DNA of 39,713 bases from Escherichia phage vB_EcoP_SYGE1: sequence record MW883060; one strand, 5' to 3'. Shown here piece by piece: positions 3,398 through 28,541 of the stretch. Numbering within the stretch: the stretch's first letter is position 1; every line of letters starts with the position of its first letter. The position numbers were made by a program, and so were the translations under genes. The notes under the pieces were generated by a model that ran no database searches, was not told the DNA's origin, and was given only the letters and a program-made list of their open reading frames with translations.

Positions 3398-3601
3398 TTA
3401 CTCCTTGTTGGCTTTCTTCCAGTCAATCATCTTATCGACTACCTTGGCACCAATCTGAACCACTGTGTAGGCGATAGCAGCAATATAGAACCACTCGTTT
3501 AATGAAAGTCCCCAAAATAGTCTGGCAGCACCATCGGCTACACCAGTCCCTACAATCGGAGCAGCCTTCACTACCTCGTTGTTAAAATCTAATGACAACA
3601 T
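3398..3601 (-). CDS. Holin (gp17.5), 67 aa
   Basis: Internal ATG at 3599..3601 preceded by AAAGGAGGACACACACAC; MLSLDFNNEVVKAAPIVGTG... with a hydrophobic core and charged C-terminus. The 84-aa track ORF is an upstream extension. Confidence 0.85.
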   Translation of the reverse strand: MLSLDFNNEVVKAAPIVGTGVADGAARLFWGLSLNEWFYIAAIAYTVVQIGAKVVDKMIDWKKANKE

Positions 3602-3654
3602 TGTGTGTGTGTCCTCCTTTAAAGTTGAGACCGTCCGTGGTCTATTGGTCATCC

Positions 3655-5607
3655 TTATTGGTTCTGTACTAGAATACGAGTTGGTACAGAGTGGCGATCC
3701 TCATCGTTACGGAATGTTCGCCCGTTGTTGGAGATAGTGAACTTCAACCAGCCACCATCAGACGAGATGAAGTAAGACGCATTGTCACCAATAGGCACAG
3801 CGTTCCAGCGTCCGTTAGTCTGAATCCAGATAGTTCTCCATCGGACATCCTGTGAGAGACCTACTGAAACACCACCACCCACATCACCTTTCCACACCTC
3901 AGCCCACCCAGCATTCTTATTAACGTATCGACCATCAGCTTGGGCTTGTGTCAATCGACCATTGACCAAGTTGTTCACTTCTCCTTTGGTGTAGGCGTGT
4001 TCGTTTAGTCGGTGGTTTACCCATGCATCAATGTACATTCCATACTTATCGATATATAGGTTACCATCTGGTGGGATATACCAACCAGTCGAGCTAACAA
4101 GAGTACCATCACTCCTGAAATCGAAGTGAGTCACACGGAGATAATGTCTGATAAAGAAGTTAGCGCCATCGCCATTGTTGTATAAGCACTTAGCATACAG
4201 GTGCTCTTTGCCCCAAATGGTTGCTCGCTCAAGGAGATAGTTTACATCACCCTGCTTCTCAATGTTATGCTGAACATCAGGTGTCAGACTGCTAGTCCAC
4301 TGGTTCCAACCACCACCATGCGTTTTCTTAGTGAAACTTGAAGTGGTAGAATCAATGAAAAAGTTCTTATTAGTGTGCACCCCATCGGCTTTAAGTGAAA
4401 CTGATGTGTTGTTTTGGTAACTATGGAGATATACATCTGCGCTACCTTTGTTTGCACGACCTACGTACCAATCATTTACCCCAGCTTGCGACCCAAACAC
4501 CGCTGTTGTTCCTTCATTATTACTAGAGGTTGACTGTAGGTTAAGTCTTGGTTGTTCAGTGTTGGAGACGAAGCTACCATGTTCAGCATAGAAGTCACCA
4601 TTACTAAGTTTAACCCCTGATTTAAAAGTTGGGGTTGCTCCCTCTACCTTCTCAATGGTTCCAGCTAGGCCATTCATATTACCCAACTTGTTGGCCTCAG
4701 ACTTAGCACGGTCTGCTTCACTCTCAGAGCGGTTTGCCTCAGTGTTGGCTCGGTCAGCATGTCCCTTAGCGGTCTCAGCATGTGCAGCAGCCTTGGCAAC
4801 CTCAGCAGCAGCTTTAGTCACTTCTCCGGCAGCACGATTGGCCTCATCACGGGCACGATTGGCCTCAGAGTTGGAACGGTCAGCTTGCTTCTCGGCCTCA
4901 GCGACACTTGCGGTCATACTGTCAGCATAACCTTTAGCACGATTGGCCTCAGAGTTGGAACGGTCAGCTTGATTCTTGGACTCAACTGCTTGTGCCGTAG
5001 AGACACCTGCCTGCTGGGTCGAGCGGTCAGCTTCACGTTTCGCGCGGTCAGCTTCGTCGCGTGAGCGGTTGGCTTCCCTGTTGGAGCGGTTAGCGTGTTC
5101 ATCAGCTTTAGTAACAGCGTTCCACACAGAGGTCTCACGTTCCTTAATCTGCTTCAGCGGGACGGCATCATAGTCGCCAGTAGCGAACGCTAGGTTAACA
5201 ATCTTACGACCACGGGCATCCAAGTGACCATTATTGTTGACACCGATAGTATCCGCAGTCATGTCACGAGCCTCTTCCGCTACGTGCATTGTTTGAATCT
5301 GAGCAACGTTAAGGTCATACGCACGGAGGATTGAGCCGTCCGTAAAGTCAACCAAGCGGTCGGTCGTGGAGGTTACTCGACGTAACTCGATGGTCGTGTA
5401 GCCATCTGACGGACCCCAAGCCTTGGTCAGTGAGATGGTAGTACGTGTAGCAAAACGGTAGTCCGTATTAATCGTAAGGACCTTGCGGTCTACACCAATA
5501 AGAGTTACCACTACGAACTTACGGGCTAGATACTCAAACGGGATATTAAAATCACGCTTGGAGCCATCTAACTGGTAAGTCAAAACGGTTTTAATTACGT
5601 TAGCCAT
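3655..5607 (-). CDS. Tail fibre protein gp17 (650 aa), chimeric
   Basis: N-terminal ~150 aa match the recalled T7 gp17 tail-attachment domain; the middle is a long acidic/basic coiled-coil with ADRSNSEANRA-type repeats; the C-terminal domain is only distantly T7-like. Confidence 0.9.
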   Translation of the reverse strand: MANVIKTVLTYQLDGSKRDFNIPFEYLARKFVVVTLIGVDRKVLTINTDYRFATRTTISLTKAWGPSDGYTTIELRRVTSTTDRLVDFTDGSILRAYDLNVAQIQTMHVAEEARDMTADTIGVNNNGHLDARGRKIVNLAFATGDYDAVPLKQIKERETSVWNAVTKADEHANRSNREANRSRDEADRAKREADRSTQQAGVSTAQAVESKNQADRSNSEANRAKGYADSMTASVAEAEKQADRSNSEANRARDEANRAAGEVTKAAAEVAKAAAHAETAKGHADRANTEANRSESEADRAKSEANKLGNMNGLAGTIEKVEGATPTFKSGVKLSNGDFYAEHGSFVSNTEQPRLNLQSTSSNNEGTTAVFGSQAGVNDWYVGRANKGSADVYLHSYQNNTSVSLKADGVHTNKNFFIDSTTSSFTKKTHGGGWNQWTSSLTPDVQHNIEKQGDVNYLLERATIWGKEHLYAKCLYNNGDGANFFIRHYLRVTHFDFRSDGTLVSSTGWYIPPDGNLYIDKYGMYIDAWVNHRLNEHAYTKGEVNNLVNGRLTQAQADGRYVNKNAGWAEVWKGDVGGGVSVGLSQDVRWRTIWIQTNGRWNAVPIGDNASYFISSDGGWLKFTISNNGRTFRNDEDRHSVPTRILVQNQ

Positions 5608-5659: not shown

Positions 5660-5682
5660 TCTCCCTATAGTGAGTCGTATTA
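5660..5682 (-). promoter_or_regulatory. Phage RNAP promoter phi17
   Basis: Perfect reverse complement of TAATACGACTCACTATAGGGAGA. Confidence 0.9.
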
Positions 5683-9662: not shown

Positions 9663-11906
9663 TTACTCCTTACGTCCATAGATGAACTTAGGAGTCTGTT
9701 TACGTTTCTCTCTGACTCGTTTAGCAGCAGCTTCACGGGCTTTCGTTGCGGCAACTATAGGTGCTCGCTTGTTAACATCAGCCAGAGCCTTCTCGCGAGC
9801 TTTCTCTTCGAGTTTCTTCTGGTTCTCACTCCAGACCTTCGAGAGTAACTCTTTGTCGTATCGTGCTCGGACTTGACCAGTTGTGTCCATAAGGTAAATG
9901 GAATCACCTTGTGAATATACGGTCAGTTGCTTATTGGTTATCCAAGGGTTACTCGCAATGATTCCCTTACGTGCTTCCTCCAGAATATCACGACCTTGCT
10001 CCCATGATTTCGGGTCAGAGTTGACTTGCATCATGTTCTTAGGAATTACACCAACGGTATCACCATCAACATCATCACCAGTGAACGTGTAGGTAGATTC
10101 CTTAAGGAACTTGGTCATCTGCTCCATAGCCATACTTTCGTTCCCTGAGCGATATTTAACTGAGTCATAAATCTTACGCGCAGACTCACGTAGTGACGCT
10201 GGCATACGGGCAATCTCAGGAGCCTTAGAGCTATTCAGTGCAGATTCGAATGCTTTATCATCCTCGAAGCGTTGCTCTTTGGAGCGTTTGGCAGTCAGTC
10301 GGTCAGCGTCTAGAATAACCTGAGGGTCAATACCTTGCTTGTCCATCATGTCCATCGTCAGGAACAACTCAGCTTGGTCTGGATATAGTGCAGCAATCAA
10401 CTGAGGGTCGGCATTACGGATTCTACGGAGGGCATCAAGAGCTGGCGTTCGTTCTGGCAACTTACCGTTAATCACAGCGGCAGACCACTCCTGAGCAGCA
10501 TCAGTGACCATAGTCCCGATAGCTGTACGGAATGCTCCGTCCTTAGAGTCCGCTTGAAGGTACTTCAACTTCATAGCGTCCTTAGCGCCATCTGGAATAT
10601 CCATGCGGTCAATCTCCGCGAGCTTCTTATTGGCGTAGTTAACCATATCACTATGCTTGAACTCACCAGTGTTCTCGTTTGTTGGCATGTCCTTAAAGTC
10701 CGTTGAGACCCACTCACCGTTGATTCGCTTCTGAAACTGCTTGTCGATTACTTCAAGTTTGTTCATAGACTTCATGGAATCATCAAGAGCCTTTGCCTGA
10801 GCTTTCGTCCATGCGTTCATCTGCTTCTGAACTTGTTCCTGTGCGGAGATTAACCACTCACGTTGGGGTGTCATCTGCTCATCAGGTTGAACCTTATCAA
10901 GTTCTGCCTTGATACCTTGAAGCATCTCCCACGCAGTCCGAGGGTCCTCTTGGTTCAGCGCAGAGTTAATCTTCAAGCGGTACTGCTCGTTCAGCTTAGC
11001 GTCATTCTCAAACTGAGAACGTTGTGCTGTGACCATGAGAGCATTCCACTGTTCTTCACCCATCAACTCTCGGTAAGTCGTAGTGGCTCCGTTAAGTGTT
11101 ACCTTCTTGTCACCGACTCGCATCAGAAAGTCAGCACCACCAGCACGGCTAGAAGCGTCACTGAACGCTTGGCTTATAAGCTGTGTAGCCTGAGCGTCAG
11201 ACGGGATTGCTCCAGTAACCAGACCGTTGTCGATGTACTTCTCAAAGAAGTCCGCAGAGTCTGGACGACGCAGCATATCTGGGTCTTGAAGGACACTGTT
11301 GAGTTCCACTCGGCTGTTCATGATGGCACCCTTCTGAGCTTGCTGGCTCAAGAAGTTATCGTGTGCGCCATACAGCGAGATGTTACGCTCGGTGATGTCC
11401 CCGTTGAAACCACGCTGATAGTCAACGTCATCAGGGTCAATACCAAACTGCTCAGCGTATGCCTTAGCGCCCTCTTGAAGACGACTGTGACGATACTCTT
11501 CCATTTCTTCACGAGTACGGAAGACACCCTCTTTGATCTTCTGCATAACGTCATCGTCAACAAGGTACGCAGCGTTACGACCAGTCTTGACTCGCAGTGC
11601 TTCCATAGCGTATGGGTCATCCTGATACAGAAGGGTCCCATTGTTGAGAGCTTCTCGACGTTGCTCAGGGGTCAGCTTACGGATAATCTCGTTGGAGCGT
11701 TCGTCAGCTAGGTCTCGTGCTCTCTGTTCCTTAGCGGTATACATATCAGCACCAGCCTGAGCGAACCGACCAATGGTGTCCAATAGGCTTGACTTTGGCT
11801 GTGCAGCTTGAGTTGTTGCCGCACGATAACCCATACCACCAGCGCCACCACGTAACCGAGAGATTCCCGGTTGTGCCGCTTGAAGGGCAGATTCAATTTT
11901 ACTCAT
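9663..11906 (-). CDS. Internal virion protein C gp15
   Basis: 747 aa with ATG start; position and length as T7 gp15. Confidence 0.9.
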   Translation of the reverse strand: MSKIESALQAAQPGISRLRGGAGGMGYRAATTQAAQPKSSLLDTIGRFAQAGADMYTAKEQRARDLADERSNEIIRKLTPEQRREALNNGTLLYQDDPYAMEALRVKTGRNAAYLVDDDVMQKIKEGVFRTREEMEEYRHSRLQEGAKAYAEQFGIDPDDVDYQRGFNGDITERNISLYGAHDNFLSQQAQKGAIMNSRVELNSVLQDPDMLRRPDSADFFEKYIDNGLVTGAIPSDAQATQLISQAFSDASSRAGGADFLMRVGDKKVTLNGATTTYRELMGEEQWNALMVTAQRSQFENDAKLNEQYRLKINSALNQEDPRTAWEMLQGIKAELDKVQPDEQMTPQREWLISAQEQVQKQMNAWTKAQAKALDDSMKSMNKLEVIDKQFQKRINGEWVSTDFKDMPTNENTGEFKHSDMVNYANKKLAEIDRMDIPDGAKDAMKLKYLQADSKDGAFRTAIGTMVTDAAQEWSAAVINGKLPERTPALDALRRIRNADPQLIAALYPDQAELFLTMDMMDKQGIDPQVILDADRLTAKRSKEQRFEDDKAFESALNSSKAPEIARMPASLRESARKIYDSVKYRSGNESMAMEQMTKFLKESTYTFTGDDVDGDTVGVIPKNMMQVNSDPKSWEQGRDILEEARKGIIASNPWITNKQLTVYSQGDSIYLMDTTGQVRARYDKELLSKVWSENQKKLEEKAREKALADVNKRAPIVAATKAREAAAKRVREKRKQTPKFIYGRKE

Positions 11907-12941: not shown

Positions 12942-12964
12942 GTCGTATTGTTCTCCCTATAGTG
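12942..12964 (-). promoter_or_regulatory. Phage RNAP promoter phi13
   Basis: Perfect reverse complement of TAATACGACTCACTATAGGGAGA. Confidence 0.9.
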
Positions 12965-13004
12965 AGTCGTATTAATTTCGAGCCACCACAGGGAGAACAT
13001 TTAA

Positions 13005-16069: not shown

Positions 16070-17268
16070 TTATTGCTCAGCGGTGGCAGCAGCCAACTCA
16101 GCTTCCTTTCGGGCTTTGTTAGCAGCGCGTGTGCGTGCGGCCTTCTGTGCTGGCGTTAAGGTTTCTTCTGTTGAAGTAACACTCACCTCTTCGGGACTAG
16201 CAGCGACCGTTGAGGCCACCTCCTGCATTACTCCCCCTTGAAAACCACAGCACCAGCAGCTTCTGGGCGCAGACCACCGTGACCCATTGCATACTTAGCA
16301 ATAATCTGGTCAGCTTGGAAGTTAGCACGGCGAGCGCGCTCCAGAGCCAAGTCACGCAGTTTAACAGTACCTACCGCAGAGCGGTGCATGAACAGGCCGA
16401 TAACGTTGTTCTTAGCAACCTTGGCGTTATCACTCTTAGTGGTAGGGAAGGCGTGCTTCTGACCAGTAGTAGTATCATCACGAGCAGTACCAGCACCACC
16501 AGCGGTGAGGTGCGGAACTTCTACAACCTCAAAGCCCATAACGTTGCGGATAGAACCCTTCTCAGGGTCAATCAGAGCAGCGTAGTTTGCCGCGTTCGGC
16601 ATCAGCGCAGCCAGAATCGCAGAGTAGCTATCTGGGTCGCAGTAGAACACGCGGTCAGCAGCTGGAACATAGTTCTTGGTCAGAGCCGCACGAGCTTTGG
16701 TCAGAGCCGCAATAATCTCCTTACCCAGAGCAACTTGGTCGGTAAGCTCACTCTTGCTCTGAGTGGTCTCAATCACAGTGGCAGTGCCCAGACCTGCAAT
16801 GTTCTCATCAGCGGTACTCTCCAAGTTACACAGGCCAGCAATCTCAGCCAGAACCGCACCATCAGCAGCCATCGCCAGAGATTCACCCAACTGAGAGGTA
16901 TACTCAGAGCGAACGTCATAGTGGTTCATCGCGTCCTCAATATCGTAAATCAGAACGTCAGCCGTCAGGAGACCATCAATGGTGATTACCTTCTCGGTGT
17001 GTTTGATGTCTTTACGTTTATCATCGAGGTTCTCACCCGGAGCCAGATACGCTGCCTGAGTGCGACCCAGAACAGGGAACTGAGCAGATTTACCGCTGGA
17101 AATGGAACGGACCATGTGGCGAGAAGTGGTCACAGAGGTACGAGCGAATGCAGTCAGAACTTCACCACCAAATACCTTCAAGAACAACGCCAGTTTATCA
17201 GAAGCACTTGCACCTTTACCTTTACCTTGGTTAGCACCCAGTTGCTGTCCACCAGTCATAGTAGTCAT
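16070..17268 (-). CDS. Minor capsid protein gp10B, made by -1 ribosomal frameshift near the end of 10A
   Basis: Slippery GGTTTTC on the minus strand at 16240..16246; the -1 frame stays open for 56 codons (QGGVMQEVASTVAASPEEV...KARKEAELAAATAEQ) to TAA at 16070..16072. Confidence 0.75.
16228..17268 (-). CDS. Major capsid protein gp10A
   Basis: 346 aa with ATG start behind the phi10 leader (AAGAAGGAGACATACATATG); near identical to recalled T7 gp10A after the first ~25 residues. Confidence 0.95.
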   Translation of the reverse strand: MTTMTGGQQLGANQGKGKGASASDKLALFLKVFGGEVLTAFARTSVTTSRHMVRSISSGKSAQFPVLGRTQAAYLAPGENLDDKRKDIKHTEKVITIDGLLTADVLIYDIEDAMNHYDVRSEYTSQLGESLAMAADGAVLAEIAGLCNLESTADENIAGLGTATVIETTQSKSELTDQVALGKEIIAALTKARAALTKNYVPAADRVFYCDPDSYSAILAALMPNAANYAALIDPEKGSIRNVMGFEVVEVPHLTAGGAGTARDDTTTGQKHAFPTTKSDNAKVAKNNVIGLFMHRSAVGTVKLRDLALERARRANFQADQIIAKYAMGHGGLRPEAAGAVVFKGE

Positions 17269-17326: not shown

Positions 17327-17349
17327 TCTCCCTATAGTGAGTCGTATTA
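17327..17349 (-). promoter_or_regulatory. Phage RNAP promoter phi10 with canonical leader
   Basis: TAATACGACTCACTATAGGGAGACCACAACGGTTTCCCTCTAGAAAT... on the minus strand, the classical phi10 leader. Confidence 0.95.
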
Positions 17350-18361: not shown

Positions 18362-18384
18362 CTCTCCCTATAGTGAGTCGTATT
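18362..18384 (-). promoter_or_regulatory. Phage RNAP promoter phi9
   Basis: Perfect consensus 23-mer on the minus strand. Confidence 0.9.
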
Positions 18385-19993
18385 AAATACCAGGCTGTAA
18401 ACCTACGGAATCAGCAGCAGCAACCATAGCCTCAGGTGAAGCCGTAGCCTGTGCAGCCATACCTTGACCAAGCGCAGCAGCACCACTATCCATACCCATT
18501 TGCATAGACTGTTGAGCCATCTTCTGTTGCTTCTGTTCTTCGGTAAGAAGGATACCAGAAGTGTCAATACCGATAGCGTTAGCAATGCGCAACTTAATCA
18601 TCGCAAGGTTGATGTCAGGGTCATCACGCATAGGAGCAAGAGCAGCCCACGCAGCGACACAACGCTCCAGCTTATCAAGGTCTTGACCACGACCGATTGC
18701 TTCCAGACCTGTACTAATGGTTGGCTCTACGGCTTCCTTAGGTAACTCAGGAATCTGTTGCGTGGCTTGTAGTTGCTTCAAGAGCACTCGTACCAGAGGC
18801 AACTGTAATTCTTGAGAAAGGATTGAGTAGACACCACCTAAAGTATCTTCAAGTTCAGAAGCGACATACCGAATCTCTTCGGCGGTCACACGTTCACCTG
18901 TGCGCTGAACCGCAGAGTTCAACATAAAGGCAAACGAAAGGCGAGCCTCAATAGCGTCACTGACAGCCTTGGCTACAGTAAAGTCTGCTTGCTTCTCCAG
19001 TTGGAGGAACGAGATGTCTTCTGGACGACCGGTAACGAAGTCACCAGTCTGAGCTTTGGTCAGTCGGCGTGGCTGGGTGATACCAGCAGGATTCACTAAG
19101 CCGATAACCTTAGAGCTAATCATGGACATCTTGACGATAGCCTCTTGGAGATTCTCAAGGGACCGTAAGTCACCTAAGTATTCCTCAATGTACGAACGAC
19201 CGTAGGATTCACCGTCCAGACGAACCATTCGAATCGGGATGTATGGACAAGCATCTTTAGGATACGCCCCATCGGAGCCTTGTATCTCCATACCTTCAAC
19301 CTCTTCGTAGCGGAGATATTCGTCTGACTCTTCGTCCAAGTAGATGTGAGTGTACACATCAATGGTCTCATCAGGTTTCTTCTCACCGCCTTGACCTTCT
19401 ACAGCCTTACGGATGTCCTCAGGGAGAGCACCAAAAGCTATCTGGTCACGAGTCACCATTTGCAGAACGTTGCCGAATGCGTCTCGTTGGACCACATAAG
19501 AAGACAATCGGTACAGCTTCATGGGATTATAGTTTGACCCTTCTGGTTCCGGTAGATACAGCAAGACGTTACCCGCTACGACTAACTGCTTGAGAGCCTC
19601 AAAGAGAGTCACGCGGTAGCTGTTAGACTCAATGTAGTTCATGATGATACGCTCTACCATTGAGAGACCCTCATCGACCTTAGCGAGTCCATCGGGGTCA
19701 TTCAGTAACTGTTTGGCCTCATACTCAGAGATGGTCAGTTTCATCCACGTCTGCATCGGAAAGAGAGCCAGCATGAGCTTAGAGGCCAAGTTATTGAGAC
19801 CGCGAGCACCTACAGCTTGCCACGGAGTTGTGTAGTCTGTAGATGAGTTATCGGAGTCCTTAGGGAAGAGGGACGGAATGGTGTACTGAGCGCAGTTTTG
19901 AGCGCGAGTCTCATAAGGAGCGCGGTCGTTCTTCAATCGGTCATAAACGGACTTTGCGCCTTCCTCGGCTAGACCTGTACGCTTCTCAGCCAT
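18383..19993 (-). CDS. Head-to-tail connector (portal) gp8
   Basis: 536 aa with ATG start; position and length as T7 gp8. Confidence 0.9.
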   Translation of the reverse strand: MAEKRTGLAEEGAKSVYDRLKNDRAPYETRAQNCAQYTIPSLFPKDSDNSSTDYTTPWQAVGARGLNNLASKLMLALFPMQTWMKLTISEYEAKQLLNDPDGLAKVDEGLSMVERIIMNYIESNSYRVTLFEALKQLVVAGNVLLYLPEPEGSNYNPMKLYRLSSYVVQRDAFGNVLQMVTRDQIAFGALPEDIRKAVEGQGGEKKPDETIDVYTHIYLDEESDEYLRYEEVEGMEIQGSDGAYPKDACPYIPIRMVRLDGESYGRSYIEEYLGDLRSLENLQEAIVKMSMISSKVIGLVNPAGITQPRRLTKAQTGDFVTGRPEDISFLQLEKQADFTVAKAVSDAIEARLSFAFMLNSAVQRTGERVTAEEIRYVASELEDTLGGVYSILSQELQLPLVRVLLKQLQATQQIPELPKEAVEPTISTGLEAIGRGQDLDKLERCVAAWAALAPMRDDPDINLAMIKLRIANAIGIDTSGILLTEEQKQQKMAQQSMQMGMDSGAAALGQGMAAQATASPEAMVAAADSVGLQPGI

Positions 19994-20007
19994 GTGTCAC
20001 CTCCTGT

Positions 20008-20325
20008 TTAAATGTTGATGCCGCCACCGGAGCTACGGGCTACGCTCAAGGACTTCTTACCACCAGAACGAGCTTTCTTACGTCCGCTTTCGGTCTGTGC
20101 TTCGTCCTCCGTGGAAACCTCTTTCTCAGGTACGTCAACAATCTGTGCAGCAGGAGTTGCGGCAGCCGTTGGTTGCGGTACTTCAACTACCTGTGTTTCA
20201 CCAGCACCTGCCAGCGCACCAGCGACCTGTTTAATAGGACGAGTCACTTCCTTGGTAGCTTTCTTCACAGCTTTCGTAATTGGCTTTGTGGCTTTCTTCA
20301 CTACCTTCTTAACTTTCTTACCCAT
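20008..20325 (-). CDS. gp7.3 tail/host-range protein
   Basis: 105 aa, lysine-rich MGKKVKKVVKKATK... and a C-terminus ...ESGRKKARSGGKKSLSVARSSGGGINI similar to recalled T7 gp7.3. Confidence 0.8.
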   Translation of the reverse strand: MGKKVKKVVKKATKPITKAVKKATKEVTRPIKQVAGALAGAGETQVVEVPQPTAAATPAAQIVDVPEKEVSTEDEAQTESGRKKARSGGKKSLSVARSSGGGINI

Positions 20326-21287: not shown

Positions 21288-21352
21288 GTAATAATCATAA
21301 AGGCCCCTATCTCCCTATAGTGAGTCGTATTAATTTAGGGACCTTGAGTTTA
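21288..21352 (-). promoter_or_regulatory. Putative RNase III site R6.5 enclosing the phi6.5 promoter
   Basis: ataaaggcccctatc...[promoter]...gggaccttgagtttatt inverted elements flank the promoter. Confidence 0.4.
21310..21332 (-). promoter_or_regulatory. Phage RNAP promoter phi6.5
   Basis: Perfect consensus 23-mer on the minus strand. Confidence 0.9.
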
Positions 21353-22710: not shown

Positions 22711-23012
22711 CAGAACACCTCCCGTACAGTTGCAGGAGAGAGTCGAATCAGTTTACGCTCAGACTCGCTCATGTCATTGTAGCTATCCTTAACGAATGAG
22801 CGAAGTTCATGCTTAATCAGGAACGTAGCGAGGCCCTCAGGACCATTCGTCAACGCTTGGACAAGCAACTCTTTCTTAAAGTCATCAACCTGTTCACCAG
22901 CGGCTACTGCCTTTGCAACTCGCATGACGTAGTCTTGTAGGTTTCGTTCACCTTCACTAGTAATTACAGCGGTAACATCAAAGGACGCTTTAAATTTCTT
23001 GGTGATAGCCAT
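22710..23012 (-). CDS. gp5.5 (H-NS-binding protein in T7)
   Basis: 100 aa from ATG at 23010..23012 preceded by ATAGGAGAAATTATT; the 147-aa track ORF is an upstream extension that overlaps gene 5 exon 2 in another frame. Confidence 0.75.
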   Translation of the reverse strand: MAITKKFKASFDVTAVITSEGERNLQDYVMRVAKAVAAGEQVDDFKKELLVQALTNGPEGLATFLIKHELRSFVKDSYNDMSESERKLIRLSPATVREVF

Positions 23013-23031
23013 AATAATTTCTCCTATAGAA

Positions 23032-25746
23032 TTAGTGACATACGGCCCAATTCGGACCAATCTTACCTTCGGTATCCAGAAGACACCGGAAGTTCCAGTG
23101 GTCTCCAACCCAGCGCATTGCTTCTTGTGCGGTCTCAATGACCACCTGAGCAATCTCTTCGGTACGGCAACCTACTTGAATCTCATCCTTTCTGTATTCT
23201 CCTATTACTAGGAGTGTCGGACTATATCATCAGCCTTTGAGTTGACTGTCTGGCGCTTCGGGTAACGAGGGAATCTCACCCTCGGCCCTACTCCTTTCGG
23301 ATAGTCTCTACGCCTTCCACTCTCTAATCCACTTACAAGCGGCAGAGAACGTTACACCAAACTTCTCACCTAAGTGTGTTCCTGTACATCCAGTCTCCAA
23401 CCAGTATTCCTTCGCGGACTCTTTACGGTCAGCGTAGCGTTCACTGTTTGTCTTGACTGTATGCTCAGAACCTTCTAGTAACTGGAGGTGCTCTACGTTA
23501 CAGCACGCCCTGTTCCTACACTTGTGGTCTACTTCATACCCTTCTGGTATATCTCCGTAGTGTTCCTTCCATACTGTCCTGTGATACATTTCTAGGACAC
23601 CGTTAGTCTTCTTTTGGAAATAACCATCAGCATTAAGTTTGTGTGACGTAGGGATGATACAACCACTCTCTGTGGCCGCAAGTATTAACTTCTTGCCTCT
23701 CATATATCCTCCCTATGGCTTGGCTCGGTATTGCCCAGAAGGGTTTCACCGAGTTCACCAGATTTAATGTGCACAATGAGATAGTTTATGCACCCATGCC
23801 ATGTACGCAAAGTCCCCATCCCATCCATGCTTCAAGCCTTTCTCTACAAGCATCTCTTCGGTCTTGATAATCCACAGTTTGCAGATAAGAGCACCAGCAG
23901 ATTGCAGTAGGGTATTCAAGGCAGCATGAGGACTACGAACGTGTACCTTACGACCATCCAGACCTTTAATCCAGCGGCGTTTCCACTTGACTTGTTGCTC
24001 ACCAGCTACCCATTGAGAGGACTCGACAAGTGTCTGTTGGATAGACTCGCGGAGTGCTGCAATCGCGGGGGTGTTCTCAAGGAATTTCTTCTTGAGTTCC
24101 TTACCGCGCTCTTTACCAGCACCAACAATCTGCCCAATCTTCTCATCACCAGCACCATAAAGGAACCCATAGATGAACGTCTTTGCGTTATCACGGGTAG
24201 GCAATTCAGCAGCTAGCTGGTTCTTAGTGTGGATGTCGCCATGAAGAATCTCTCTAGCGTACTCGCCGTTATCAAAGCGAGCCATGAAATGAGCCAAGCA
24301 GCGTAGCTCCAGACCGGATGCGTCTATACCTGCCTGAACCCAAGGCTTACCCGTAATACCGTCTAGGTGATGTTCAGCGCCAAAAGCAGCGCGGCACTTA
24401 TCACCATAAGGAGAACGGACACCGGGTACTTGTGCGAGGTTAGGGAAAGCGTGAGTAGCGCGCCCAGTAACAGCGCCGTTGGGATTAACAGAACCATGAA
24501 TCTTACCGTCCTCAGCAACGTAACGAAGCCACGCCTTGTCTCCCTCAGCAGACTGTCCGATTCGCTTCTGAATCATCAGGTACTCTTTAATGAGGTCGAT
24601 AGCAGCTTGCTTCTCAGGGTCATCTACACGCACTCCTTCGAGTACCTCATCGTCCACCACAGGAGCGCCATTATCGGTGTACTTCGTGGGGACCCAGCCA
24701 GCCTCTTGAAGTTTCTTCTGGATGTGGTCACGAGACGATGGGTTAAACACTACGTGCTCAACTGGGGTGTAAGGAGCACCAGCAACGTACTCTCGGGTAT
24801 CCAGTTCGCAAGGCTCAAGGCCTTCTCGCTGTGCCTTGTTCTTAGGCTTCTTAAAGATACCACCAACTTTAGGTGTCTTAATGCGAGGGTATTTAGGCAG
24901 TGGCTTACCTGTCCGTGGATGGCAGAACATTTCGGTACCACCTTTCGGCTGATACCATGAGCCGAACGTTTCGGTCAGCTTACGGAGCAACTCAGAGCGT
25001 CTCGCAGCTAACTCTACGTACAACTCTTCGATTGCTTTCGTGTCAAATGGGAATCCATTGCGTTCTTGCTTAGCGAGCAGCCATGCAGCACGATGCTCAA
25101 TGTCAACGGCCTCAAGGGATTCTGACCAGAACGTAGTGTATCCTACGTCCGTAAAGTCAATCTCAGGAGGGAAGTAATGTTTGTCAGAGAGTAGCTTCTC
25201 AAGGAGAGTTTTAGTGACCACAACGTCCTGAACGTTATAGGCCATCATCTCTTCGTTGAAGTTCCACCACTCCATTCCGTCAACGTATTCTTCACCTTGC
25301 TCTTCAAGCATACGCTTAAAGTCATCCTTGTATTCACCCTTCATCTCGCCTAAGCGATAGCCCCACGCCTCCAGAGCGTGAGACCCAAAGCGGTTCCCCG
25401 GCAACTTACCGGAACGCAGGAGACCCATATCGGTGTCCTTTAGGTTAGAGTGAATCAAACGTGACAGCACAAGGGTGTCAATACAGTTCTCGCGAGGAAG
25501 GTGGAACTCTCGGTTCAATTGTAGCTTTGCCAGTTTGGTCAATGCAGGAACGTCATACTTGTGACCGTTGTGGAACACAATAAGACCGCCTCGTGCAACC
25601 TCGGCTTCCAGCGCATCCAGATACGCACCGAAGTCACTCGGACGGTAGCTTACGTACTCAGCGGTGGAGTAGTCGTAGATAACCCCGCAGTGGAACTTAG
25701 TGACGCTCTCTAAGAGGGCGTTAGCTTCGATGTCAGAAACGATCAT
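23032..25746 (-). CDS. DNA polymerase gp5, split gene: exon 1 25746..23788, exon 2 23187..23032, spliced product 704 aa
   Basis: The track ORF (660 aa) follows T7 gp5 up to ...FAYMAWVH and then adds 7 unrelated residues before a stop. The missing C-terminus ([51 protein letters not shown]-stop) is encoded 600 nt downstream. 653 + 51 = 704 aa, the T7 gp5 length. Confidence 0.85.
23188..23787 (-). mobile_element. Group I self-splicing intron (600 nt) in DNA polymerase gene 5, carrying an HNH homing endonuclease ORF
   Basis: Exon 1 ends in U and the intron ends in G. Intron positions 14-19 (GUGCAC) can pair with the exon 1 end GUGCAU including the U-G wobble (P1); positions 8-13 (CUCAUU) can pair with the exon 2 start GAUGAG (P10). 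The 3' part has P7-like AGACUA...GAUAUAGUCCGAC and a terminal hairpin CUCCUAGUAAUAGGAG. Confidence 0.8.
23308..23703 (-). CDS. Intron-encoded HNH homing endonuclease (131 aa)
   Basis: ATG preceded by AGGGAGGATAT; HNH motif [20 protein letters not shown]; its TAG stop abuts the P7-like core element. Confidence 0.8.
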   Translation of the reverse strand: MRGKKLILAATESGCIIPTSHKLNADGYFQKKTNGVLEMYHRTVWKEHYGDIPEGYEVDHKCRNRACCNVEHLQLLEGSEHTVKTNSERYADRKESAKEYWLETGCTGTHLGEKFGVTFSAACKWIREWKA

Positions 25747-26759: not shown

Positions 26760-28509
<1,750 letters not shown>

Positions 28510-28541
28510 TCAACATTGCGAACAAAGGGAAACCGTTGTGG

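Follow-up and report, generated by a model that had tools for sequence, protein, structure and literature searches.

The DNA polymerase gene (gene 5) of Escherichia phage vB_EcoP_SYGE1 appears in the sequence record MW883060 (39,713 nt, one strand, referred to here as the window) as an open reading frame of 660 amino acids that follows T7 DNA polymerase as far as residue 653 and then stops. The question raised by this locus is whether the phage makes a shortened polymerase, or whether the C-terminus is restored from sequence further downstream. It is very probable that gene 5 is split between the codons for His653 and Asp654 by a mobile group I intron, the same element as in phages PhiI and W31; the element has been known since 2004, and close relatives already have it annotated.

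Gene 5 and the joined polymerase

The locus consists of three segments:
23788..25746, minus strand: gene 5 exon 1, 1959 nt, 653 codons, ending ...GCA TGG GTG CAU (His653)
23188..23787, minus strand: 600-nt insert read as an IA2-like group I intron with no P2 (absent from T7 and 3A_8767; Rfam RF00028; covariation)
23032..23187, minus strand: gene 5 exon 2, 156 nt (51 codons plus stop), first codons GAU GAG

Unspliced read-through from exon 1 adds seven codons (KLSHCAH) and stops at 23764, which is the 660-aa ORF (25746..23764, minus strand) described in the first-pass annotation of this DNA, and the 51 C-terminal residues that it placed 600 nt downstream are indeed encoded by 23187..23032. Exon 1 contains a Pfam DNA_pol_A match (3.8e-36) and can be aligned to residues 1-653 of T7 DNA polymerase, and the first two codons of exon 2 specify Asp654 and Glu655 of polymerase motif C (His-Asp-Glu). 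Together the exons encode 704 amino acids, the length given for T7 gp5 in the first-pass annotation; in the alignment that had been proposed as a check, residues 1-704 match residues 1-704 of T7 DNA polymerase (PDB 6n7w, 2ajq) end to end, with no gap anywhere, including the 653/654 junction. The junction GGGTACAT|GATGAAATCCAAG occurs without the 600 nt in T7 and in Salmonella phage 3A_8767, both of which are colinear across it, in agreement with the earlier statement that T7 itself lacks the intron; the T7 gene 5 DNA at the intron site reads GGGTACAT|GATGAAATCC. The splice junction is unique to the nucleotide, and the spliced RNA is predicted to read ...GCATGGGTGCAT|GATGAGATTCAA.... The restoration of a full-length T7-type polymerase on excision, and the colinearity of intronless relatives at that point, support the group I intron reading. 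Without splicing, translation would end after the seven extra codons in a 660-aa protein with no Asp654, a residue that is an established catalytic metal ligand in T7 DNA polymerase, and for that reason splicing would be needed for an active polymerase.

The split might instead be artefactual and stem from sequencing or assembly, for example from a chimeric contig or from DNA inserted on cloning. This explanation deserves almost no credence, since at least 80% of the 600 nt is present in 55 independent phage genome records in INPHARED, the insert lies at the same position in every homologue examined, and the exact product of its internal ORF is on record in NCBI, with members of the 90% cluster in many Logan and ENA assemblies.

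A second possibility is that a free-standing HNH endonuclease cassette interrupts gene 5 with no splicing, leaving either two associating polypeptides (660 and about 37-51 aa) or a truncated enzyme. Many GenBank records place a separate "DNA polymerase" CDS on either side of the endonuclease, and in other Studiervirinae related HNH genes do stand immediately after an uninterrupted gene 5, as in Yersinia phage YpEc11, where a free-standing relative with 47% identity to the HNH ORF follows gene 5. However, exon 2 begins (DEIQ) with neither a start codon nor a ribosome-binding site, the only listed ORF there starting 14 codons further in, and the catalytic Asp654 would be cut off from the rest of the palm domain. 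The insert is moreover bounded exactly by U and G, pairs with both exons through P1 and P10, and has non-coding flanks (about 200 nt) that are more conserved than the ORF and fold as a covarying group I core. A cassette of this kind is thus very improbable. An intein, a group II intron and a frameshift were likewise set aside on the features of the insert, namely its in-frame stops, its group I core and its exact U...G boundaries.

Boundaries, guide sequence and catalytic core

The intron starts with AAACUAUC and ends in ...ACAGAAAG, with the terminal G as ωG; the last base of exon 1 is U and the 3′ boundary reads ...GAAAG|GAUGAG. These limits coincide with the 600-nt stretch predicted earlier (23787..23188, preceded by U and ending in G). 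Near the 5′-end lies one further element:
23769..23780, minus strand: internal guide sequence, pairing with exon 2 (P10) and exon 1 (P1)

P1 is formed by intron nt 14-19 (GUGCAC) with GUGCAU of exon 1, which leaves a U·G pair at the 5′ splice site; all 12 of the homologues share this pair. The outer pair of P1 covaries with the exon sequence, changing from G-C to A-U in three relatives. P10 is formed over 6 bp by intron nt 8-13 (CUCAUU) with GAUGAG of exon 2; it is paired in 91% of cells of the 12-homologue comparison, with two pairs changed on both sides. Both helices had been proposed in the first-pass annotation, and both can be read directly in the sequence. The synonymous exon bases that flank the intron are GTG and GAG here versus GTA and GAA in T7, and the bases that distinguish them are exactly the pairing partners of guide bases C17 and C8. 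In phage Bas102 the exon has GAA and the guide a compensating U8.

A structure comprising P1, P3, P4, P5, P6a, P7, P7.1, P7.2, P8, P9 and P10 was drawn by hand and tested on the 12 homologues. Its core is laid out as follows:
23724..23762, minus strand: 5′ half of the catalytic core, P3, P4 and P5 (P3 5′ strand 23762..23756; P4 23753..23748; P5 hairpin 23743..23734; P4 3′ strand 23729..23724)
23715..23718, minus strand: P6a 5′ strand CCAU, partner GUGG at 23320..23317
23199..23306, minus strand: 3′ half of the catalytic core, P7 to P9 (P7 5′ strand GACUAU 23306..23301; P7.1 23300..23293; P7.2 23288..23260; P3 3′ strand 23255..23249; P8 23248..23231; P7 3′ strand AUAGUC 23225..23220; P9 23214..23199)

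Pairing is maintained in 97.7% of cells and compensatory (both-sided) changes occur in 25 of 60 pairs, the homologues being related and several near-identical, so that cells do not count as independent events. None of 500 shuffles reaches the observed value, and slid partners pair in 36-47%. P4 and P5 are paired in 100% of cells and P6a in 97.9%, with two of its four pairs changing on both sides (read directly, CCUU/AAGG in MQM1 and ACUG/CAGU in WAG25P1). The core includes a P3/P7 pseudoknot; compensatory changes affect five of the seven pairs of P3, and neither P7 nor P7.1 varies among the 12 sequences. Compensatory changes are found in each of P7.2, P8 and P9, among them an A-U to U-A exchange in P7.2 in 4 of 9 sequences. 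A complete core with compensatory changes across the 12 homologues also supports a group I intron. Single-sequence MFE folding of the ORF-less intron, which alone is weak evidence, recovered P4/P5, P7.1, P7.2 and P9 (z = -2.4) and did not recover the P3/P7 pseudoknot.

The 3′ region had been likened to the P7 core of Tetrahymena-type introns. The motifs are present (AGACUAU just after the ORF stop, and GAUAUAGUCCGAC) and P7 is formed, but the comparison is imprecise, as P7.1 and P7.2 joined by GUA mark subgroup IA2; the Tetrahymena intron belongs to subgroup IC1. As described in PMC3428280, IA2 introns carry an extra P7.1 and P7.2 between P7 and the 3′ strand of P3, joined by G-U-A. In the present intron P7.1 (CCGAAAGG) is followed by the linker AGUA and by P7.2 (GGGCCGAGGG...CCCUCGUUACCC).

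A group I scan with Rfam had also been suggested as a check. Model RF00028 (Intron_gpI) matches over its full length (1-253) across 23797..23198 with E=1.1e-7, at a score of 37.1 bits that lies below the gathering score of 50, which is a curation cutoff and not a biological criterion. At the gathering threshold there is no Rfam match in the whole window, and a default Rfam scan of it therefore overlooks this intron. The homologues of MQM1 (61 bits) and Arash (58.9 bits) exceed the cutoff, and four other relatives that were scored also fall below it. The low score is attributed to the 396 nt that the ORF inserts, the lack of P2 and the model's placement of P7 inside the ORF. Rfam's choice of the P7 5′ strand, AGACUA within the ORF (~23600), was rejected for AGACUAU right after the stop codon, because all homologues have the latter unchanged, with AUAGUC as its partner. 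The core as drawn differs from Rfam's own alignment in this strand, and it is the drawn core that the covariation tests.

In the pre-mRNA the guide sequence would form P1 with the end of exon 1, placing U·G at the splice site, and P10 with the start of exon 2, while the P3-P9 core would fold and bind guanosine. Two transesterifications would then excise the 600 nt and join ...GUGCAU to GAUGAG..., restoring motif C (His-Asp-Glu) and the 51 C-terminal residues of the polymerase. Self-splicing in this phage, like the activity of its endonuclease, is presumed by analogy with the literature on PhiI and W31; guanosine-dependent self-splicing of both those introns was reportedly shown by Bonocora and Shub in 2004.

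A scan of 22900-24000 for sigma-70 promoters and terminators gave nothing beyond shuffle expectation, and a search inside the intron for T7 promoters with up to 3 mismatches found none. The sequence CCAUAGGGAGG resembles the 3′ end of the T7-promoter consensus.

The intron-encoded HNH endonuclease

The group I intron call of the first-pass annotation was sound, but it overlooked an HNH ORF that takes up two thirds of the intron:
23308..23703, minus strand: HNH homing endonuclease ORF, 131 aa (Pfam HNH_3, PHROG 6254, identity to I-TslI)
23708..23713, minus strand: putative ribosome-binding site GGGAGG, 4 nt upstream of the ORF's AUG and adjoining P6a

The ORF sits in the P6a loop, between 23718..23715 and 23320..23317, and terminates in J6/7 with a UAG codon that a single base separates from P7. 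It matches Pfam PF13392 (HNH_3) at 6.7e-17 and 61.3 bits, against a cutoff of 24.8, and PHROG 6254 (HNH endonuclease) at 5.3e-46. Its identity to I-TslI of phage PhiI (AAV53690.1) is 86% over 131 of 131 amino acids, with 18 residues different, and on this identity it is an I-TslI orthologue. This relationship, and the annotation of an insert 98.5% identical to this one in phage 13a, bring the independent lines of support for the group I intron reading to five. Judged from its sequence and position, GGGAGG probably acts as the ribosome-binding site of the ORF. In the SYGE1 record the ORF is labelled "hypothetical protein", and a PDB sequence search with it gave no meaningful match.

I-TslI is a nicking homing endonuclease that nicks at a site with a 9-bp core, as stated in PMC8136825, which cites Bonocora and Shub (2009). 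In a mixed infection the HNH endonuclease of this phage would introduce a nick close to the insertion site in gene 5 alleles that lack the intron, and recombinational repair would copy the intron into the nicked alleles (homing). It is also conceivable that the ribozyme is intact but the element immobile, with a decaying or domesticated ORF and a passively inherited intron, and the differences from I-TslI at 18 of 131 residues would fit such a history. This is unlikely, however, as the ORF is full length and intact and its HNH motif (His...Asn...His) is conserved in 12 of 12 homologues, and as, in distant phages, the flanking exons have diverged far more than the intron and ORF.

The product of T7 gene 5.3 was considered as a free-standing relative of the intron HNH protein and discarded, no similarity being found. 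The T7 regions with genes 3.8, 5.3 and 7.7 are missing from the present phage; in the RefSeq T7 record 3.8 and 7.7 are annotated as HNH endonucleases.

Relatives, distribution and implications

Residues 881-883 of Pol I are the His-Asp-Glu triplet. The introns of PhiI and W31, described in 2004 (Bonocora & Shub, as cited in PMC3428280), are IA2 introns at Pol I site 881 with an HNH ORF in P6a (PMC3428280), so the first-pass annotation named these two phages correctly. They share with the present intron the host gene, the site before the motif C Asp, the IA2-type architecture with P7.1 and P7.2, and the position of the HNH ORF. PhiI is a different isolate, separated by the 18 amino acid differences in the endonuclease. 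Homology of the ribozyme itself to the PhiI and W31 introns (AY769989, AY769990) is probable, by way of the ORF and of phages 13a and K1F.

Close relatives are the introns of phages 13a (EU734174; 98.5%), Bas103 and Bas104, at 98.2-98.5% nucleotide identity, whereas that of Bas102 is 87% identical; JeanTinguely has 98.6% identity over a 901-nt query of intron plus flanks. Introns of 13a and the BASEL phages differ from this one only by point differences and a 1-nt difference in length, and 13a and Bas102 have the same boundaries, both records joining gp5 from two pieces, with an endonuclease annotated inside. Gene 5 of K1F (genus Kayfunavirus) is also annotated as a join. Its intron, with the endonuclease gp5.3, has the same site and architecture (ribozyme 92% and HNH protein 77% identical), but unlike this one has a weaker P10 (4 bp) and compensatory changes in P5, P7.2 and P9.

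Comparable arrangements exist in other phages. The T4 td, nrdB and nrdD (sunY) introns are self-splicing, interrupt essential genes of nucleotide and DNA metabolism, carry homing-endonuclease ORFs in peripheral loops and, like this intron, contain an in-frame stop a short distance past the 5′ splice site. They differ in their host genes and endonucleases, which are of the GIY-YIG type in I-TevI and I-TevII and HNH only in I-TevIII. According to PMC3428280, group I introns also interrupt the family A polymerase genes of the Bacillus phages SPO1 and SP82 (I-HmuI, I-HmuII) and Bastille (I-BasI) and of cyanophage Pf-WMP3 (I-PfoP3I), and they too code for HNH homing endonucleases of the nicking type. 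That of Pf-WMP3 is likewise an IA2 intron, with no P2 and its ORF in P6a. These introns lie at Pol I position 674, not 881, and belong to other intron lineages with other endonuclease architectures.

Members of the present intron family occur in Studiervirinae (Teseptimavirus, Kayfunavirus and Aeromonas phage PT2), in another Autographiviridae phage (Edwardsiella), in the 77-kb Gordonclarkvirinae, in a 112-kb Vibrio phage of the Grimontviridae and in an unclassified 63-kb Aeromonas phage. The ribozyme flanks are 78-92% identical in nucleotides versus 57-77% in amino acids for the ORF. The excess conservation of intron and ORF over the exons in distant phages points to recent horizontal movement, and the family's presence at a single site, His|Asp-Glu, in phage polymerases that are very distant implies horizontal spread.

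The main value of these observations is a correction of annotation, and no new mechanism is involved. ORF callers give a polymerase cut short at 660 aa, a "hypothetical protein" and, in some cases, a second, small "polymerase", where the true coding is one 704-aa T7-type enzyme and an I-TslI-like homing endonuclease; the same mis-annotation is found in many deposited T7-like genomes. The SYGE1 paper makes no mention of intron, polymerase or endonuclease. This phage is a member of a published therapeutic cocktail (PMC8248792), and a mobile intron that brings a nicking endonuclease along matters both for recombination with other T7-like phages and for the engineering of gene 5.

A modest addition is that a single intron family is found at one and the same catalytic-motif codon in phage polymerases that are very distant from each other. 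Taken jointly, the observations lean towards a family that is actively spreading across deeply divergent phage lineages, always homing into the conserved His|Asp-Glu codons, with the guide sequence and the synonymous exon bases re-adapting at each jump; in the present phage the element may also serve as a weapon against intronless T7-like phages in the same infected cell.

Gene 5 exons and the splice junction

Gene 5, encoding the DNA polymerase, lies on the minus strand of the window as two coding pieces, and the piece between them carries a reading frame of its own.

Components of the split gene 5 of phage vB_EcoP_SYGE1
25746..23788, minus strand: exon 1, 1959 nt, 653 codons
23787..23188, minus strand: intervening piece (intron), exactly 600 nt
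23703..23308, minus strand: intron ORF, 131 aa, Pfam HNH_3 and PHROG 6254, with GGGAGG upstream
23187..23032, minus strand: exon 2, 156 nt, 51 residues and then a stop

Read without splicing, the gene yields a 660-aa ORF (25746..23764, minus strand) that is recognised by Pfam as a family A DNA polymerase and ends in KLSHCAH before its stop. Joining the exons gives 704 aa that align, residues 1-704 on 1-704, with the T7 DNA polymerase chains (6n7w, 2ajq), free of gaps at the junction. The first-pass annotation, made from sequence alone, had described the 660-aa ORF, the 51 C-terminal residues lying 600 nt downstream, the joined length of 704 aa and the lack of the intron in T7; translation and the full-length alignment agree with it on each, and T7 is colinear across the junction.

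When the window is mapped onto T7 by blastn, a clean insertion of 600 nt appears between T7 positions 16311 and 16312. The intronless junction reads ...GCATGGGTACAT GATGAAATCCAAGTAGG... in T7 and identically in Salmonella phage 3A_8767, and moving the junction one base either way loses this sequence, so that the position of the splice junction is determined to the single base. It falls between His653 and Asp654, within the His-Asp-Glu of motif C. Since Asp654 is one of the two catalytic metal ligands of T7 DNA polymerase, a 660-aa polymerase made from unspliced transcript would be inactive.

Fold of the intron and its endonuclease

The insert in gene 5 is a group I intron. An Rfam scan of the whole window found no match at the gathering threshold, but in E-value mode Intron_gpI (RF00028) matched 23797..23198 on the minus strand over the full model (1-253; 37.1 bits, E=1.1e-7). 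The ORF insert of 396 nt and the absence of P2 (a P2 hairpin occupies the corresponding position in the MQM1 and WAG25P1 introns) best account for the shortfall, since the introns of phage MQM1 (61 bits) and Salmonella phage Arash (ORF-less; 58.9 bits) exceed the gathering score. Rfam's placement of P7 on an AGACUA inside the ORF was rejected as spurious; the real P7 strand is AGACUAU, which is invariant and immediately follows the stop codon.

Splice sites were located in eleven homologues from public phage genomes (13a, Sal_R1S, Bas102, K1F, CHRF_10037, ECBP2, 1-6af, the Aeromonas phages PT2 and MQM1, Vibrio phage Vp_R1 and Edwardsiella phage WAG25P1), the ORF was removed, and the ribozyme parts were aligned with that of the window (12 sequences, several of them near-identical). 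The helices P1, P3, P4, P5, P6a, P7, P7.1, P7.2, P8, P9 and P10 were drawn from the window sequence. Standard pairs fill 97.7% of 697 cells, 25 of the 60 pairs have changed on both sides, and none of 500 shuffles reached any of the five measures. When the 3′ partners were slid by 1-3 columns, pairing fell to 36-47% and the number of compensatory pairs to 2-7, a comparison in which drawing from the window sequence favours the structure in percentage paired, not in compensatory-pair counts. Compensatory pairs occur in P3 (5/7), P8 (4/5) and P9 (4/6), P7 and P7.1 are invariant, and P1 covaries with the exon, GUGCAU/GUGCAC becoming AUGCAU/GUGCAU in ECBP2, 1-6af and Vp_R1. Between P7 and the 3′ strand of P3 lie P7.1 and P7.2, with the linker A-G-U-A, an arrangement given as the hallmark of subgroup IA2 in PMC3428280. 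The same paper describes the introns of PhiI and W31 as the first group I introns found in T7-like phages, of subgroup IA2, at Pol I site 881 and with HNH endonucleases encoded in P6a, in keeping with the first-pass annotation, which had named PhiI and W31 as carriers of such polymerase introns. Its group I reading is upheld by the RF00028 match and the covarying core, and it was correct throughout on the boundaries, the P1 and P10 pairing and the AGACUA 3′ motif; it overlooked the ORF, which takes up two thirds of the intron.

An endonuclease cassette that is never spliced, leaving a two-piece polymerase, is contradicted by the covariation of the non-coding core, by boundaries of U...G accompanied by P1 and P10, and by the absence of any signal for translation to start at DEIQ.

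The ORF of this group I intron lies inside the loop closed by P6a (CCAU/GUGG), a helix that covaries (CCUU/AAGG in MQM1, ACUG/CAGU in WAG25P1), and its UAG stop lies in J6/7, one base ahead of P7. The product matches HNH_3 (6.7e-17; 61.3 bits against a cutoff of 24.8) and PHROG 6254, an HNH endonuclease family (5.3e-46), and is identical to QUD16309.1, recorded as "hypothetical protein SYGE1_24". It shares a 90% cluster with I-TslI of phage PhiI (AAV53690.1), with 86% BLASTP identity across all 131 residues, and is, by sequence, an intact I-TslI orthologue. PMC8136825 and PMC8845596, both citing Bonocora and Shub (2009), describe I-TslI as a nicking homing endonuclease of the HNH type, encoded by an intron, whose site has a 9-bp core.

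Related free-standing HNH genes lie directly downstream of uninterrupted gene 5 in other Studiervirinae, in line with the published proposal that the intron was invaded by an endonuclease once free-standing; T7 gp5.3, compared with the intron ORF, showed no similarity.

Free-standing relatives of the intron HNH gene
Yersinia phage YpEc11 (L015), 1835-2170: 47% identical over 101 aa
Citrobacter phage SH3 (L014), 1927-2142: related

The window lacks the T7 DNA holding the HNH endonuclease genes 3.8 and 7.7 as well as gene 5.3, and gene 5.5 directly follows exon 2; the one HNH gene checked in the window is therefore that of the intron.

T7 DNA missing from the window
Window 28479-28514: T7 11213-11586
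Window 22739-23031: T7 16469-17120
Window 19993-19999: T7 19843-20240

Nine matches to T7-type promoters, five of them perfect, occur in the window (for example 5660-5682, 12952-12974, 17327-17349, 18363-18385 and 21310-21332, minus strand). All are on the minus strand, and the window is thus the reverse complement of the conventional T7 map. The search found none inside the intron; intronic CCAUAGGGAGG resembles the 3′ end of such a promoter. By blastn, the 3′ part of the tail-fibre gene (3595-5188) does not match the C-terminal portion of T7 gene 17, which suggests a receptor-binding domain different from that of T7.

Predicted splicing and homing, and probable spread between phages

To judge from its sequence and from annotation in relatives, the intron is the element published in 2004. 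Phage 13a carries an intron 98.5% identical; its record joins gp5 from two pieces and places an endonuclease inside, as do those of K1F and Bas102. In many other records the polymerase is entered instead as two separate CDSs, or a hypothetical protein is annotated, and the published SYGE1 paper does not mention the intron. The practical value of identifying it is corrected annotation. At least 55 phage records hold at least 80% of the intron, and its presence in many independent genomes excludes an assembly artefact.

Established here are the split gene with its exact boundaries, a conserved and covarying ribozyme with guide-sequence pairing to both exons, and the intact I-TslI orthologue. Bonocora and Shub (2004) reportedly observed splicing of the PhiI and W31 introns in vivo and in vitro. 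By analogy, the transcript would self-splice with guanosine, ligating GUGCAU to GAUGAG and making synthesis of the 704-aa polymerase possible. In a mixed infection, the endonuclease would nick intronless gene 5 alleles, and their repair would copy the intron in.

The exons differ synonymously from those of T7 and 3A_8767 at -4 (23791; GTG versus GTA) and +6 (23182; GAG versus GAA), bases that pair with guide C17 (P1) and C8 (P10), respectively. Such changes at exactly the guide-pairing bases support continuing co-adaptation of exons and guide, and fit co-conversion or selection for splicing. Bas102 retains GAA with a compensating U8 in its guide.

All 12 introns are inserted after CAT (His) and before GAY GAR, in widely differing polymerases of Studiervirinae, another Autographiviridae phage, Gordonclarkvirinae, Grimontviridae and an unclassified Aeromonas phage.

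Identity of distant introns and their exons to those of the window
ECBP2, 1-6af, Vp_R1, WAG25P1: ribozyme 78-85% nt; HNH 57-62% aa; flanking exons 16-34% aa
MQM1: ribozyme 65% nt; HNH 61% aa; flanking exons 41-44% aa

MQM1's polymerase is recorded as a three-piece join, which implies a second intron elsewhere in that gene, and in WAG25P1 exon 2 is closely followed by another, separate gene for an HNH homing endonuclease. In Arash, a 181-kb phage, the ORF-less intron (L013, 749-1020) interrupts the family A polymerase elsewhere, apparently in the region of motif B. The 3′ core of this intron shares 75% identity with nt 471-600 of the window's intron, and the record names the polymerase halves "DNA polymerase nu" and "DNA polymerase theta".

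With ribozyme and HNH far closer than the flanking exons at an identical site, the comparison points to a single intron family spread horizontally between phage families into one catalytic-motif site. An immobile relic is unlikely, because the ORF is intact in every homologue examined and the element shows higher conservation than the gene it interrupts. No statement of cross-lineage spread into the motif-C site was found in the accessible literature; such horizontal spread is what homing theory predicts.
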